Origin: Escherichia coli
GTDB taxonomy: Bacteria > Pseudomonadota > Gammaproteobacteria > Enterobacterales > Enterobacteriaceae
Length of the DNA stretch: 64,000 nt
Direction: 5' to 3' (one strand)
Assembly: GCF_024502345.1 (NCBI RefSeq)
Contig: NZ_JALDNN010000001.1
The position numbers were made by a program, and so were the translations under genes. Below the pieces are notes generated by a model. The model saw nothing but the letters and a program-made list of their open reading frames with translations, was not told the DNA's origin and searched no databases. Of this stretch, positions 3,353-63,025 are shown one piece after another. Position 1 is the stretch's first letter, and each line of letters opens with the position of its first letter.

Positions 3353-5113
3353 TCAGTTAGCGATAAAACGCTTCTCGTCTGTCAGTACTTGCAATAACAA
3401 ACTTAACTGTGGTTTTTCATCTTTCACTCTTTCACCACGTAAGTTGTAAGTGCGGTATTTACCGTTATTGTTCAGCACCAGCGTCTTTTTCGGAGTGGTA
3501 ATTGCCAGCGTATCGTTATCCGCTGCGGTAACCCAGTAATGACGGCGTTGAGGGTTGAACAAATCCTGACCTTGCGAATATTCGCTGGCAGGTGTGCTGA
3601 CATGTAGCAGGCGTTGCATCAGCGTCGTCATCAGATCGGTATGATCAGTCAGAGCATTAATACGCTGCGCCGGCGTGCCTGGCCAGTGAATCACTAATGG
3701 CACCTGCAGATGACCGTGGGACCAGTCAAAGGTTTCTTCCTCTTCGCTCAGTGGAATACCCCGAGCGGCAGTGATAATCACCACCGTATTGTCCAGTTTG
3801 CCAGAATCACGCAGTGCATTGAGCACACGGTTGATCTGGTCATCGACATTGCCTGCCGCCCGGCTATATTTCCGTGCAAATGCCTGCTGATTGCTGTCGT
3901 CAATGTTAGTACCATTGAAAGAGACCCACGAGAACCAGCGGTTATCTTCTTGTGCGTAGCGTCCCAGCCAGTTGATCCACTGCGTGGCGGTCTGCTCGTC
4001 GGATTGGGTGCGTACGCTCGGCATCGAGAAATCTGACAACAATGCCTGGCGATACAGCGGGCTGGTAAAGCCATCTGATGAGAATAACCCCAGCTGATAG
4101 CCTTGCTGATTAAGCGCAGTAATTAATGCCGCAGGCGTACGGGTCGACAGAATGCCGTCCATATAGCTCGGCGAGATGCCATAGAACAGGCCAAAGATGC
4201 CGTTGTCTGTAGTGTTGCCGGAGCTCATATGGCGCGTGAACGAAATATTTTGCTCAGCAAAACCTGCCAGCGCAGGCATCTGCTTCTCGAAGCGTGAGTA
4301 GTTCAGGCCATCGACAGTAATCAACAGCACATTCTGCCCGGTGCCCATATCGCGATAGCGCAGTTCGCTTAACGGATACTGAACGGAAACGGCGTCTGGA
4401 TTACCTTGCTCAATAAGACGGCGTTGATACTCCTGCGCATCAAGCAGGCCATGCTTCTCAAGAAAACGTCGCGCCGTCATCGGGTACGAAAGCGGCAGGT
4501 TAGCGCGCTGCATGGTGATAGGGCGATAGAAGTTGGCATCGGCCCAGATATACACCACATGCGAGGCGATAAAGGCGATAAATAAGAATGCGGCCAGCGG
4601 GCGCGCGAAGCGTCGACGACGCGTCAGGCTGCGCAGCTTTTGCCAGCTCCACGTCGCAAACACCAGTTCAAGCAATAAAATAACCGGCACGCTGATGAAC
4701 ATCAGCTGCCAGTCGCGCGCCATCTCATTTTCGTCTGGGTTGATAACCAGTTGCCAGACGATGGGATTAAGATGGAGATGGAAACGAGTAAAGACTTCGC
4801 TATCGATCAGTAATAGCGTCATTCCCGCCGTTGCCAGAATGACGGACAAAAACCTCATCAGCCTCTGGGAGCCGACGATAAAGGTCAGCGGGAAGAGGAT
4901 CAGCAAGTAGGTGGCGAACACCAGGAAGCTGAAATGGCCGATAATGCTTACGTAGGAATAAATGCGACCAGCAAGCGTGGTCGGCCAGTCGGCGATAAAC
5001 AGGTAACGGCTGCCAATGACGAGCGAAAGCAGAATATTGAACAGTGCAAACCAGTGCCCCCAACTGACCATCTGGGAGACTTTTTCACGGTAGCGCTGAC
5101 GATGAGTTACCAT
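3353..5113 (-). CDS. yejM: inner-membrane cardiolipin transport / LPS-regulation protein PbgA (YejM)
   Basis: 586-aa ORF recognised as YejM; conserved position upstream of proL. Confidence 0.9.
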   Translation of the reverse strand: MVTHRQRYREKVSQMVSWGHWFALFNILLSLVIGSRYLFIADWPTTLAGRIYSYVSIIGHFSFLVFATYLLILFPLTFIVGSQRLMRFLSVILATAGMTLLLIDSEVFTRFHLHLNPIVWQLVINPDENEMARDWQLMFISVPVILLLELVFATWSWQKLRSLTRRRRFARPLAAFLFIAFIASHVVYIWADANFYRPITMQRANLPLSYPMTARRFLEKHGLLDAQEYQRRLIEQGNPDAVSVQYPLSELRYRDMGTGQNVLLITVDGLNYSRFEKQMPALAGFAEQNISFTRHMSSGNTTDNGIFGLFYGISPSYMDGILSTRTPAALITALNQQGYQLGLFSSDGFTSPLYRQALLSDFSMPSVRTQSDEQTATQWINWLGRYAQEDNRWFSWVSFNGTNIDDSNQQAFARKYSRAAGNVDDQINRVLNALRDSGKLDNTVVIITAARGIPLSEEEETFDWSHGHLQVPLVIHWPGTPAQRINALTDHTDLMTTLMQRLLHVSTPASEYSQGQDLFNPQRRHYWVTAADNDTLAITTPKKTLVLNNNGKYRTYNLRGERVKDEKPQLSLLLQVLTDEKRFIAN

Positions 5114-7095: not shown

Positions 7096-8856
7096 TTAAC
7101 CGCGTAATTCGTGCGCCCGACGAAAACGACCTTCGTAATCGAACACTTTTTCACGCACTTGCCAGTACTGACCTTTCATGCGGGCGACGACAAAATCCGG
7201 ATGTCGCAGTAAGGCTTGCTGGGCGAGGATATCGGCGGCGGTGATCCAGCGCAGAGGGATGCCCGGTGTGCGCGTATGCGGGCGGATAAAAAGCTGCTCG
7301 AAGGCAGTTCGCTGGGCGGGCGTTTGCAGACGGAAACGCTCACTCACATCCGCGCCGTCTTCATCGTAATAGGTGATTTTCAACCATTCGCCTTTCTCGT
7401 CGTGCCCATGCTGCAAAGACATGCCGCTACAGCGTAATACCAGCGCGTCTTTCAGTCGTAGCGCCGCTTTTAACATATCGTCAGGATCAACCAGTACCGT
7501 GTCACATTCGCGGCAGCGGCGAGCGGCAATATCATTTTCTGCGTTACATTGCGGGCAATTTTTAAAACGGAAACGGAAGTCACACTGTTCGCGATGACCG
7601 TCGTCATCTTCAAACCATCCCTGGCAGCGGCGACCAAAGTGTTCAATCAATGTTCCGTCAGCGGTCGTTTTCCCCCAAAAGGTGTTAGCAAAGCCGCAGG
7701 CAGGGCAGAAAACCTGTACCGGAACGTTGTCACTTTTGCCTTTCGGTGTACCAACTTCCGGCGCGTAGAGGTCGTGAGGATTACCCGCATAATCAAGAAT
7801 TAAGCAATCAGTCTTGCCAGGAGCGAGACGCAGACCGCGCCCGACAATCTGTTGGTAAAGACTCACTGATTCGGTAGGGCGCAGAATGGCGATAAGATCG
7901 ACGTGCGGGGCGTCAAATCCGGTGGTCAGTACCGCGACGTTGACCAGATAGCGAAAACGCTGGGCTTTAAAATTTTCAATTAACACATCGCGCTCAGCGC
8001 CGGGGGTGTCGCCAGTAATCAGTGCAGCATCTTCGGCGGGTAGTAATCCCACAATCTCTTTTGCGTGTTCAACGGTGGCGGCGAAAATCATCACCCCTTT
8101 GCGCGTTGCAGCAAACTCCATAATCTGGCTGATGATGTGCGGGGTAATACGTTGTTGTTTTTTTAGCTCGCGGTTGAGATCGGCTTCGCTGAACAGCCCA
8201 TTACTCTGTGCCTGCAAGCGGCTGAAATCGTATTGCACTACTGGCATATCCAGTCGTTCTGGCGGCGTCAGATAGCCGTGTTTAATCATATAACGCAGCG
8301 GCAGTTCATAAATGCAGTCACGGAAAAGGGCTTTCTCATCGCCGCGTACCATGCCGTGATAATGGAACTGGTAGATCCAGCCTTTGCCCAGTCGAAAAGG
8401 CGTGGCAGTCAGCCCCAGCAGGCGTAAGTGGGGATTCACTTTTGTCAGGTGAGTGAGGATTTGCTGATACTGGCTCTCTTCATCGTCACCAATACGGTGA
8501 CATTCATCGACAATCAACAGCGAAAATTCACCCTGAAAGGCATCAAGATTACGGGCGACCGACTGCACGCTGCCAAATACCACTTTACCGTGGCTCTCTT
8601 TGCGCTTTAGCCCGGCGGCAAAAATATCGGCTTCCAGCCCCAGCGCCTGATACTTTGCATGGTTTTGCGCCACCAGTTCTTTAACGTGTGCCAGCACCAG
8701 TACGCGACCACGAGCCAGCCGTGCCAGTTCCGCTATCACCAGGCTTTTACCTGCGCCGGTGGGCAGCACGATAACGGCAGGGGTTTTATGACGACGAAAA
8801 TGGTTGAGCGTGGCATCCACGGCTTCTTGCTGATATGGGCGAAGTGTAAAAATCAT
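7096..8856 (-). CDS. radD: ATP-dependent helicase RadD (YejH), superfamily 2
   Basis: 586-aa ORF with Walker A (LPTGAGKS) and DECH box; recognised as YejH/RadD. Confidence 0.9.
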
Positions 8857-59166: not shown

Positions 59167-60117
59167 ATGCGTGTGTTACTGGCACCGATGGAGGGAGTGC
59201 TTGACTCTCTGGTGCGTGAATTGCTGACCGAAGTTAACGACTACGATCTGTGCATCACCGAGTTTGTCCGCGTGGTGGATCAACTGCTGCCGGTAAAAGT
59301 CTTTCATCGCATTTGCCCTGAGCTACAAAACGCCAGCCGGACACCATCTGGTACGCTGGTGCGCGTGCAGTTGTTAGGTCAGTTCCCACAATGGCTGGCA
59401 GAGAACGCCGCCCGTGCGGTGGAGTTAGGTTCCTGGGGCGTGGATCTCAATTGCGGCTGCCCGTCGACAACGGTTAACGGTAGCGGCGGCGGGGCGACGT
59501 TACTCAAAGATCCTGAACTCATCTACCAGGGGGCAAAAGCGATGCGTGAAGCTGTACCGGCGCATTTGCCTGTCAGCGTGAAAGTGCGTCTGGGCTGGGA
59601 CAGCGGTGAGAAGAAATTTGAAATCGCCGATGCGGTTCAACAGGCTGGCGCTACGGAGCTGGTGGTGCATGGGCGGACGAAAGAGCAGGGTTACCGCGCG
59701 GAGCATATTGACTGGCAGGCGATTGGCGAGATTCGCCAGCGGCTGAATATTCCGGTGATTGCCAACGGTGAAATCTGGGACTGGCAGAGCGCGCAACAAT
59801 GCATGGCGATCAGCGGCTGCGACGCAGTGATGATTGGTCGCGGGGCGCTCAATATTCCCAACCTGAGCCGGGTGGTAAAATATAACGAACCGCGAATGCC
59901 GTGGCCGGAGGTGGTTGCTTTGCTGCAAAAATATACCCGTCTGGAAAAGCAGGGCGATACCGGGTTATATCACGTAGCGCGGATTAAACAGTGGTTGAGT
60001 TATTTGCGTAAAGAATACGATGAAGCAACAGAATTATTTCAGCATGTTCGGGTGTTGAATAATTCCCATGATATTGCAAGGGCTATTCAGGCAATTGATA
60101 TCGATAAGCTGCGATAA
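59167..60117 (+). CDS. dusC: tRNA-dihydrouridine(16) synthase DusC
   Basis: Product with conserved Dus catalytic Cys (LNCGCP) and TIM-barrel flavin-binding pattern; recognised as DusC/YohI. Confidence 0.9.
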
Positions 60118-60504
60118 TAGTGGAATCGCAGCTTATCAGAGACAATGAATCGCTTATTCAGCTTCATCATCTTGTTGCGCTCCTTTCATGAACTAAGCCA
60201 CATATTGCCACTGGCGCAAGGTGCGCGCAGAGGGAGGACAATCGCCTCCTCCCCCTGCACCCCCGGGCTCTGGCGAACAAAATCGCCGCTGCGCGGTACC
60301 TTCAGCTTATCCCCTTCGGCTACCGGGTCGGGCGCGAGGTAACGTCCTTGTAAGACGCGCCCTCAGCCCACATCCATGTGGGCTGCCCCGGCCTTCGGGG
60401 AACGCTTCAGCGATTTTGACGCCACCAACACCGGAGCTGTTTGCAAATCAAGTACAAAAAATATCTAGTTCCTGACCTGACAACTTATATGCCATATCTG
60501 ATTT

Positions 60505-60588
60505 TTAAAATATCATCTTAAATACGCCAGTCACCACCAGTAGCCCAATCAGGAAAATAATCAATACAGCCCAGAGTATAATTTTCAT
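60505..60588 (-). CDS. yohP: 27-aa small hydrophobic membrane protein (YohP-like)
   Basis: Minus-strand ORF MKIILWAVLIIFLIGLLVVTGVFKMIF, below the ORF-track size cutoff; identification is from memory of the K-12 small protein. Confidence 0.55.
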   Translation of the reverse strand: MKIILWAVLIIFLIGLLVVTGVFKMIF

Positions 60589-60800
60589 TGGCGTTCCTTT
60601 ATTTGTGAGTGCTGAATAAGTATAGGAAAAAACGAAGCCCTTCGCTGTCATTTATAAGTGATTAAGATAAATCGGAGAATATCATTCACTTAGTCTATAT
60701 TTTTCTGGGTATGTCGTTTTATTGCTACTGATGTATTGCCACGCGGGTGATGCTGCCAACTTACTGATTTAGTGTATGATGGTGTTTTTGAGGTGCTCCA

Positions 60801-61076
60801 GTGGCTTCTGTTTCTATCAGCTGTCCCTCCTGTTCAGCTACTGACGGGGTGGTGCGTAACGGCAAAAGCACCGCCGGACATCAGCGCTATCTCTGCTCTC
60901 ACTGCCGTAAAACATGGCAACTGCAGTTCACTTACACCGCTTCTCAACCCGGTACGCACCAGAAAATCATTGATATGGCCATGAATGGCGTTGGATGCCG
61001 GGCAACCGCCCGCATTATGGGCGTTGGCCTCAACACGATTTTCCGCCATTTAAAAAACTCAGGCCGCAGTCGGTAA
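60801..61076 (+). CDS. insA: IS1 InsA (transposition repressor / N-terminal transposase part)
   Basis: 91-aa product [43 protein letters not shown]... Confidence 0.95.
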
Positions 61077-61498
61077 CCTCGCGCATACAGCCGGGCAGTG
61101 ACGTCATCGTCTGCGCGGAAATGGACGAACAGTGGGGATACGTCGGGGCTAAATCGCGCCAGCGCTGGCTGTTTTACGCGTATGACAGGCTCCGGAAGAC
61201 GGTTGTTGCGCACGTATTCGGTGAACGCACTATGGCGACGCTGGGGCGTCTTATGAGCCTGCTGTCACCCTTTGACGTGGTGATATGGATGACGGATGGC
61301 TGGCCGCTGTATGAATCCCGCCTGAAGGGAAAGCTGCACGTAATCAGCAAGCGATATACGCAGCGAATTGAGCGGCATAACCTGAATCTGAGGCAGCACC
61401 TGGCACGGCTGGGACGGAAGTCGCTGTCGTTCTCAAAATCGGTGGAGCTGCATGACAAAGTCATCGGGCATTATCTGAACATAAAACACTATCAATAA
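60995..61498 (+). CDS. insB: IS1 InsB reading frame (expressed as InsAB' by -1 frameshift)
   Basis: 167-aa ORF in the -1 frame relative to insA, recognised as IS1 InsB. Confidence 0.9.
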
Positions 61499-61588
61499 GT
61501 TGGAGTCATTACCTGCCACGCGAAACTAAAAAATATATCGCAACACACGGTAATCTCCGCGCACCGTTTCTTACCTGATTATTCCCCC

Positions 61589-63025
61589 ATGAATCGTGAT
61601 TCCTTTTATCCAGCCATCGCCTGTTTTCCGCTGTTACTGATGCTGGCCGGGTGTGCGCCTATGCATGAAACCCGCCAGGCGTTAAGCCAGCAAACGCCCG
61701 CTGCACAAGTTGACACCGCATTACCCACGGCGCTGAAAAATGGTTGGCCAGACAGCCAATGGTGGCTGGAGTATCACGATAATCAGCTCACTTCATTAAT
61801 TAACAATGCACTACAGAACGCACCGGATATGCAGGTGGCTGAACAGCGCATTCAGCTAGCTGAAGCCCAGGCGAAGGCAGTTGCCACTCAGGATGGTCCG
61901 CAGATCGACTTTTCGGCGGATATGGAGCGGCAAAAAATGTCGGCAGAAGGGCTAATGGGGCCGTTTGCTCTGAACGATCCGGCCGCAGGTACGACCGGTC
62001 CGTGGTACACCAACGGAACTTTTGGCTTAACGGCGGGCTGGCATCTCGATATCTGGGGAAAGAATCGGGCGGAGGTTACTGCCCGCCTGGGTACGGTTAA
62101 AGCACGGGCGGCGGAACGCGAGCAAACCCGCCAATTGCTGGCTGGCAGCGTAGCCCGCCTGTACTGGGAGTGGCAAACCCAGGCGGCGTTAAACACGGTC
62201 TTGCAGCAAATAGAAAAAGAGCAGAACACCATTATCGCGACCGATCGCCAGCTATATCAGAACGGGATTACTTCTTCAGTTGACGGTGTGGAAACCGATA
62301 TTAATGCCAGCAAAACCCGGCAGCAGCTCAACGATGTCGCGGGGAAAATGAAAATTATTGAGGCACGGTTAAGCGCACTTACAAATCACCAGACAAAGTC
62401 ATTGAAGCTTAAACCGGTCGCGTTGCCGAAAGTGGCAAGCCAGCTTCCTGATGAACTGGGGTACTCCTTACTGGCCCGGCGGGCAGATTTGCAGGCGGCG
62501 CACTGGTACGTTGAGTCATCGCTAAGCACCATTGATGCGGCAAAAGCGGCATTTTATCCTGACATCAACCTGATGGCCTTCCTGCAACAGGATGCGTTGC
62601 ACTTAAGCGATCTGTTCCGTCATTCCGCGCAGCAAATGGGCGTTACGGCAGGCCTGACGCTACCTATTTTCGATAGTGGTCGTCTTAACGCCAATCTCGA
62701 TATCGCAAAAGCCGAAAGCAACTTGTCTATCGCCAGCTACAACAAAGCGGTGGTTGAAGCGGTGAATGACGTGGCGCGGGCAGCCAGTCAGGTTCAGACA
62801 CTTGCGGAGAAAAACCAGCATCAGGCGCAAATTGAGCGCGATGCCTTGCGTGTGGTAGGTCTTGCGCAGGCGCGCTTTAACGCGGGCATCATTGCTGGTT
62901 CCCGCGTCAGCGAAGCCAGAATCCCCGCGCTGCGTGAGCGGGCCAATGGCCTGTTATTGCAAGGGCAGTGGCTGGATGCTTCCATTCAACTCACTGGTGC
63001 GTTGGGCGGGGGTTACAAACGCTGA
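61589..63025 (+). CDS. mdtQ: outer-membrane efflux lipoprotein MdtQ (OprM/NodT family), full-length
   Basis: 478-aa uninterrupted ORF with lipoprotein signal (LLMLAGC); recognised as the yohG/mdtQ product. Confidence 0.85.
   Translation: MNRDSFYPAIACFPLLLMLAGCAPMHETRQALSQQTPAAQVDTALPTALKNGWPDSQWWLEYHDNQLTSLINNALQNAPDMQVAEQRIQLAEAQAKAVATQDGPQIDFSADMERQKMSAEGLMGPFALNDPAAGTTGPWYTNGTFGLTAGWHLDIWGKNRAEVTARLGTVKARAAEREQTRQLLAGSVARLYWEWQTQAALNTVLQQIEKEQNTIIATDRQLYQNGITSSVDGVETDINASKTRQQLNDVAGKMKIIEARLSALTNHQTKSLKLKPVALPKVASQLPDELGYSLLARRADLQAAHWYVESSLSTIDAAKAAFYPDINLMAFLQQDALHLSDLFRHSAQQMGVTAGLTLPIFDSGRLNANLDIAKAESNLSIASYNKAVVEAVNDVARAASQVQTLAEKNQHQAQIERDALRVVGLAQARFNAGIIAGSRVSEARIPALRERANGLLLQGQWLDASIQLTGALGGGYKR

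Follow-up and report, generated by a model that had tools for sequence, protein, structure and literature searches.

A strain-specific IS1 insertion between yohP and an intact mdtQ gene in Escherichia coli

Introduction

An insertion sequence lying immediately upstream of an efflux-related gene raises the question of whether it alters the expression of that gene or is carried as a passenger. The question arises here for an IS1 element located between yohP and mdtQ in a 64,000-nucleotide stretch of an E. coli genome, hereafter referred to as the window. E. coli has three poorly understood homologues of TolC, of which MdtQ is one (PMC11762307). According to a review, its function has not been elucidated and its promoter is without experimental confirmation; the review also places the gene, although labelled a pseudogene, among the conserved core genes of E. 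coli (PMC11762307). We therefore ask what was inserted and how, whether the insertion is found in other strains, what state the downstream gene is in, and whether any consequence for its transcription is to be expected.

Results and Discussion

Sequence and identity of the IS1 element

The element occupies positions 60746 to 61513 on the + strand, and its transposase reads towards mdtQ. It is a complete IS1 of the IS1B/IS1C type with a length of exactly 768 bp. The terminal inverted repeats, IRL GGTGATGCTGCCAACTTACTGAT (60746-60768, + strand) and IRR GGTAATGACTCCAACTTATTGAT (61491-61513, + strand), match at 18 of 23 positions, and IRR carries an outward −35-like box, TTGGAG, at 61500-61505 (PMC8764528). 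The sequence GGTGATGCTGCCAACTTACTGAT, starting at 60746, is the sole IS1 left end in the 64-kb window. Both expected reading frames, insA (60801-61076, + strand, 91 aa) and insB' (60995-61498, + strand, where the InsAB' product also ends), were found in the list of open reading frames. The programmed −1 frameshift motif TTAAAAAACTC (A6C), which leads from insA into insB', is located at 61050-61060 on the + strand. An inward promoter within IRL, CTGCCA-16-TATGAT (60753-60780, + strand), matches the consensus at 9 of 12 positions, and we take it to be the insA promoter from established knowledge of IS1.

A hand-built −1 frameshift fusion of InsAB' (232 aa) was used as the query in a profile search. 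It matched the IS1 family transposase profile NF033558 with a score of 243.8 bits (cut-off 100) across the whole profile (1-199 of 199). In gapless alignments, the element showed 2 mismatches in 768 bp to K-12 IS1B and IS1C and 7 mismatches to IS1A. The 766 bases held in common with the MG1655 IS1B/IS1C copies are collinear, and the inverted repeats, the insA/A6C/insB' layout and the 9-bp duplication are shared as well. The window copy differs from these at IS1 positions 127 and 704, and in its chromosomal site, which is occupied in none of the 5426 complete E. coli genomes. The IS1 copy of strain WWCOL-256, labelled by PGAP as an IS1B-family transposase, is 100% identical to that of the window. 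Length, inverted repeats, the insA/insB' frame, the transposase profile, the duplication and the near identity to known copies all place the element within IS1, and its sequence features are all intact.

Genomic neighbourhood and target site

The divergent neighbour of mdtQ is yohP (60505-60588, − strand), encoding a small membrane protein of 27 aa (NF011345, 67.3 bits) and annotated at every related locus; yohP in turn lies next to dusC (59167-60117, + strand). The left end of IS1 is 157 bp upstream of the yohP start codon. On the other side, 75 bp separate the IS1 end at 61513 from the mdtQ ATG at 61589, comprising 66 bp of native yohP-mdtQ spacer (61523-61588, + strand) and 9 duplicated bp. 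Of the 223-bp spacer, 157 bp on the upstream side are thus now cut off from mdtQ by the element. GC-content is 0.32-0.38 around the site and 0.381 in the 223-bp spacer, compared with 0.508 for the whole window. IS1 prefers AT-rich DNA as a target, and the AT-rich trough at the site fits this preference, which would be the driver of the insertion.

Across the 64-kb window, open reading frame lengths look intact. Two frames of equal length (586 aa; 3353-5113 and 7096-8856) suggested a duplication at first, but judging from the K-12 map they are presumably yejH and yejM, which are unrelated genes that happen to be equally long.

Target duplication and reconstruction of the empty site

Each end of the element abuts a copy of the 9-bp sequence TGCCACGCG, the left copy at 60737-60745 and the right copy at 61514-61522. 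This 9-mer occurs exactly twice in the 64-kb window, each time touching an IS1 end, and a given flanking 9-mer would recur by chance at precisely the opposite junction with a probability of about 4^-9. The empty site was rebuilt in silico by deleting IS1 together with one copy of TGCCACGCG and was compared with loci encoding the identical MdtQ protein. The rebuilt site was identical at 1191 of 1191 bp to the IS1-free locus L016 (contig DBLUBN010000017.1 of GCA_054852445.1), and over their shared 5412 bp L016 and the window differ by a single mismatch. Given this identity with a near-identical relative, the flanks are contiguous, and only the insertion and the 9-bp duplication occurred. The single mismatch in 5412 bp further indicates that the transposition was clean, simple and very recent.

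Mechanistically, the transposase cut TGCCACGCG with a 9-bp stagger, and the 9 bp were duplicated on both sides of the element during repair. No further rearrangement followed, and mdtQ was left with 66 native bp preceded by the duplicated 9 bp.

Alternatively, the element could mark the end of a larger rearrangement (a composite transposon, an inversion or a deletion) or be an assembly artefact. IS1 does take part in such an event at this locus in another strain (L028), where the target duplication is absent and the element is joined to an mglA fragment. In the window, however, the two 9-bp copies agree exactly, IS1-free relatives have the flanks joined without a difference over the 1191 bp compared, only one IS1 end is present, and the gene order dusC-yohP-mdtQ-yohF is that of K-12. 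These observations effectively refute both a rearrangement and an artefact. The first-pass annotation of the window, made from its sequence, had described a complete 768-bp IS1 with an intact 9-bp target duplication and a right end 75 bp from the mdtQ start, and it was accurate in each of these particulars.

Strain specificity of the junction

The main comparison set consisted of 5426 complete RefSeq E. coli genomes, with the window's own genome lying outside it; the best identity between the window and these genomes was 98.8-98.9% over 24.7 kb. This modest identity prompted the idea that the DNA might come from Shigella, which we regard as unlikely given a single IS1 in 64 kb and the intact look of the open reading frames. 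When the 5426 genomes were probed with 100 bp spanning the left junction, none showed a single-piece match of full length and high identity. Closest to it were IS1 copies displaced by a few bp (89% identity and a gap in the EA7 group) or a match that aligned in two pieces. For the right junction, a 45-mer was matched exactly neither among the GTDB species-representative genomes nor among the JGI metagenome contigs.

The absence of the junction from the 5426 genomes and from the contig collections indicates that the insertion is strain-specific. A comparison with the same locus in reference genomes had been proposed with the original annotation as a check on this point, and the answer, the exact junction in 0 of 5426 complete E. 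coli genomes, favours strain specificity. Being unique among these genomes, the junction is usable as a strain-specific marker. The insertion itself is textbook insertion sequence biology; the new fact is the insertion site only.

State of mdtQ and the K-12 allele

Downstream of IS1, mdtQ (yohG; 61589-63025, + strand) is intact and encodes a predicted NodT/TolC-type outer-membrane efflux lipoprotein of 478 aa. The protein matched the equivalog profile NF008524 along its entire length (residues 1-478 of 478; 1024.5 bits, cut-off 650) and scored 275.7 bits against the NodT profile TIGR01845. Its N-terminus, MNRDSFYPAIACFPLLLMLAGC, read directly from the translation, has the form of a lipoprotein signal peptide with the lipobox LAGC and Cys22.

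In MG1655, mdtQ (b2139) is annotated as a pseudogene of 1436 bp. The alignment shows that the K-12 copy has lost one base of the A5 run (gene nucleotides 144-148), which leads to a stop at codon 70. The frequency of the two alleles was assessed with exact 61-mers across the lesion site in the 5426 genomes. The window (A5) version was present in 4587 genomes and the K-12 version in 355, the examples listed for the latter being K-12-type laboratory strains. In agreement, mdtQ was open over its full length in 13 of the 16 loci fetched first (L001-L016). The exceptions were the K-12 frameshift, an internal stop at codon 198 (L011) and an IS1 at the start codon (L001). Intact mdtQ is the normal allele of the species, and the K-12 allele is the exception.

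The uninterrupted 478-aa frame and the frameshifted K-12 pseudogene had both been correctly recognised at first pass, the latter now being confirmed by the b2139 annotation and the A5 deletion. However, the contrast between them is not a noteworthy property of this strain, as 4587 of the 5426 genomes have the window allele and 355 that of K-12.

Intactness of mdtQ is also unlinked to IS1, because four IS1-free loci (L013-L016) have mdtQ DNA 100% identical to that of the window. At least 24 contigs carry the identical MdtQ protein, and in the 4 representative places displayed the neighbouring site is empty. It had been stated in advance that an mdtQ both intact and similarly expressed in strains lacking the insertion would speak against the insertion's significance; the part of that statement concerning intactness is borne out by these empty sites. 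As it stands, the finding is of little importance, being an ordinary IS1 insertion beside a gene that most E. coli have in intact form.

Possible effects on mdtQ transcription

Two regulatory consequences of the insertion were considered, activation of mdtQ from the IS1 right end and loss of its native promoter. In the first, the outward −35 box of IRR, or read-through from IS1, would raise the expression of mdtQ, a normally poorly expressed gene for an orphan outer-membrane efflux channel. The literature offers precedents for and against. The inverted repeat of IS1 carries an outward −35 box, and in ST131 an IS1 upstream of afaA raised transcription by about 7 log2 units, while an IS1 upstream of acrEF was linked to resistance (PMC8764528). 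In the same work, however, an IS1 upstream of osmB lowered expression and one upstream of ugd left expression unchanged; activation occurred only with optimal spacing to a −10 box (PMC8764528). The present locus resembles the afaA and acrEF cases in that the IS1 end is likewise close to the downstream start, and mdtQ, like acrEF, is of an efflux-related class (PMC8764528). It differs from them in the −10 partner at the needed spacing, which is poor in the window (6/12).

A sigma-70 consensus analysis of positions 60400-61700 was carried out at a threshold of 9/12, complemented by a relaxed listing at 7/12; weak promoters, and those that depend on an activator or on a sigma factor other than sigma-70, escape such scans. 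Two sites reached 9/12, namely the inward promoter in IRL and a native site in or near yohP that the empty locus shares. At neither IS1 end within 60400-61700 was an outward or hybrid promoter of at least 9/12 found, and the remaining native spacer (61523-61588) had none at this level either. Apart from the IRL promoter, no site rose above chance expectation, whether IS1 was present or removed. In the relaxed scan, the sole candidate spanning the right junction was ATTACC-15-AAAAAT (7/12). The best partner of the IRR box TTGGAG (61500-61505), found by eye, was GAAACT at a spacing of 16 bp, a 6/12 combination that falls under the 7/12 listing. Judged by consensus only, an outward −35 box followed after 16-18 bp by a good −10 box is thus not present. 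The outward IS-end promoter acting on mdtQ that had been suggested from the first reading is therefore not supported, with nothing at 9/12 and TTGGAG-16-GAAACT at just 6/12.

Read-through offers a second route to activation. The transposase gene is oriented towards mdtQ, and between insB' and mdtQ nothing resembling a + strand terminator was found, so transcription could run from IS1 into mdtQ. The insA promoter of IS1, however, has low strength and is subject to repression by InsA. The orientation of independent insertions in the same spacer of other E. coli (12 of 15 as in the window) argues in favour of activation, while damage to mdtQ in three IS1 carriers, by IS1 in codons 1-3 (L001), a stop (L011) and IS421 (L029), argues against it. 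Taken together, we consider activation unlikely.

The second consequence would be silencing, in which IS1 severs mdtQ from its native promoter or activator sites and knocks down a dispensable gene. In the rebuilt empty spacer, three native candidates scored 8/12, all at 60651-60701 and upstream of the insertion point; of six further candidates at 7/12, four lie upstream of that point and two straddle it. Any real promoter among them would consequently have been removed or split by the insertion. The upstream candidates are now at least about 0.9 kb from the mdtQ ATG, compared with about 110-160 bp before. The gene is dispensable, as shown by its pseudogene status in K-12 and its disruption in several other strains. 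On the other hand, the native candidates are weak and no better than shuffled sequence (1 found, 1.3 expected), and the real mdtQ promoter might sit within the retained 75 bp. Silencing is a doubtful outcome, although a less remote one than activation.

RNA structure provided no additional signal: the mdtQ leader folds no more stably than its shuffled counterparts (z = 0.40). An inverted repeat on the − strand that resembles a terminator (61541-61566) was considered as a regulatory structure and dropped, as it is native and also present in L016.

With no good hybrid promoter, and with the weak native candidates lying upstream of the insertion or straddling it, transcription that is unchanged or reduced is somewhat likelier than activation, should the insertion have any regulatory bearing. 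For mdtQ mRNA, the outcome of no material change takes, as a rough estimate, whatever share activation and reduction leave between them. Since the best pairing of the IRR −35 box reaches just 6/12, a regulatory effect on mdtQ stays speculation, and from sequence no such effect is apparent. In sum, the structural part of the first-pass annotation holds, including all of its coordinates, but the significance it implied is not supported, as intact mdtQ is the norm and no consensus promoter was found. The locus is very probably explained by a recent, simple IS1B/C transposition into the AT-rich yohP-mdtQ spacer, carried as a neutral or nearly neutral passenger; we infer such a passenger event in preference to a selected regulatory switch.

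IS1 insertions near mdtQ in other E. coli

IS1 was found elsewhere in the dusC-yohP-mdtQ region in 42 of the 5426 genomes, representing at least 24 independent events. Near mdtQ, 29 records had the orientation of the window, and a synthetic query with IS1 inverted recovered 13 in the opposite orientation. An initial impression that all regional IS1 copies shared one orientation was an artefact of joining match pieces on one strand, and was abandoned when the inverted query gave these 13 additional records. For end mapping, 27 of the 42 records were fetched, yielding the at least 24 distinct events, with duplications of 8 or 9 bp.

Within or at the yohP-mdtQ spacer, 12 forward events were located −1, 26, 45, 50, 83, 96, 124, 142, 155, 187, 199 and 233 bp from the mdtQ ATG, and 3 reverse events at 45, 105 and 142 bp. 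Upstream of yohP, there were 3 forward and 6 reverse events. The regional insertions share the spacer and the element family with the window, and range from 1 bp inside the annotated mdtQ start to 233 bp upstream of the ATG. In contrast, none is at the 75-bp position of the window, the insertions of EC19 (50 bp) and the EA7 group (83 bp) coming nearest. They also include several IS1 variants, 93-100% identical to the window copy, in both orientations.

The 12:3 orientation bias in the spacer had a binomial p = 0.035, and its comparison with the 3:6 ratio upstream of yohP gave p = 0.036 (Fisher's test); both tests are post hoc and uncorrected and concern small counts. As controls, two other spacers of the window were probed with IS1 in both orientations. 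The fruA>psuK spacer (423 bp, GC 0.376) yielded 14 IS1 records and the setB/fruB spacer (367 bp, GC 0.422) yielded 1. With 42 records against 14 and 1, the region upstream of mdtQ is a comparatively hot IS1 target, but not a unique one.

These counts bear on a further possibility, that the yohP-mdtQ spacer is a selected hot spot in which the IS1 right end rewires mdtQ, for example by relieving silencing, and of which the window would be a convergent instance. The excess over the control spacers and the 12:3 bias are compatible with some selection, although the bias probably reflects target preference. In L001, IS1 lies in mdtQ codons 1-3, and its 8-bp duplication TGAATCGT starts at base 2 of the ATG, which leaves the downstream mdtQ copy of this locus without the A. 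In L029, IS421 is inserted inside mdtQ. Together with L011, these IS1 carriers with a damaged mdtQ argue against simple selection for activation, and we regard a selected hot spot as highly improbable. The neutral or near-neutral passenger remains the preferred reading. If MdtQ levels were nonetheless changed by such insertions, they would constitute a natural IS1 'promoter swap' series, with at least 15 positions serving as an allelic series for mapping mdtQ regulation.

One regional insertion had a different structure. In strain GF124.3 (L028), IS1 lies 45 bp upstream of mdtQ without a target duplication, and is joined to the mglA fragment mentioned above.

Recurrent IS1 Insertion Upstream of mdtQ

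The region spanning dusC, yohP and mdtQ is a repeatedly hit IS1 target. Across 5426 complete E. coli genomes, 42 carried IS1 in this region, compared with 14 and 1 records in two control spacers from the window (fruA>psuK and setB/fruB, respectively). The 42 cases trace to no fewer than 24 separate insertion events; more than one IS1 variant is represented, in either orientation. The recurrent target corresponds to window positions 60118–61588 and was compared with loci L001–L011 and L017–L032 from other E. coli. Within the 223-bp yohP-mdtQ spacer, 12 events were in forward orientation, with the transposase reading towards mdtQ as in the window, versus 3 in reverse (p = 0.035, post hoc).

In strain GF124.3, a reverse-orientation IS1 (locus L028, 1504–2271) lies 45 bp upstream of mdtQ and has no target duplication. 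Its far side adjoins a truncated mglA, next to which mglC and preA are found with their order inverted. The arrangement resembles the product of an IS1-mediated rearrangement, one end of which falls within the mdtQ upstream spacer.

The mdtQ gene itself was damaged in some strains carrying IS1 nearby. In AVS0051, IS1 (locus L001, 2176–2943) is located at the gene start, flanked by an 8-bp duplication (TGAATCGT), and the PGAP-annotated mdtQ start coincides with the final IS1 base. The PO06101 gene contains an internal stop at codon 198, and that of YPE10 is interrupted by IS421.

Genomic Context of the Insertion

No close match to window 1–64000 was found among the 5426 complete RefSeq E. coli genomes, for which the best identity was 98.8–98.9% over 24.7 kb; unlike these, draft assembly GCA_054852445.1 was locally near-identical to the window. 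Within the mdtQ leader, minus-strand positions 61541–61566 hold an inverted repeat and adjoining T-run that resemble a terminator; the IS1-free locus of that assembly (L016) has them too, showing this repeat to be native. No minus-strand gene ends at the repeat, and the plus-strand RNA fold of the leader was not significant.

A GC-rich repeat block in the dusC-yohP interval (window about 60157–60430) matches the location of TRIP1c, a repeat described in the literature (PMC10888264). Relative to K-12 and many other strains, the block is inverted in the window (272-bp reverse-strand match, ~88% identity), an orientation shared with loci L003, L015 and L016.
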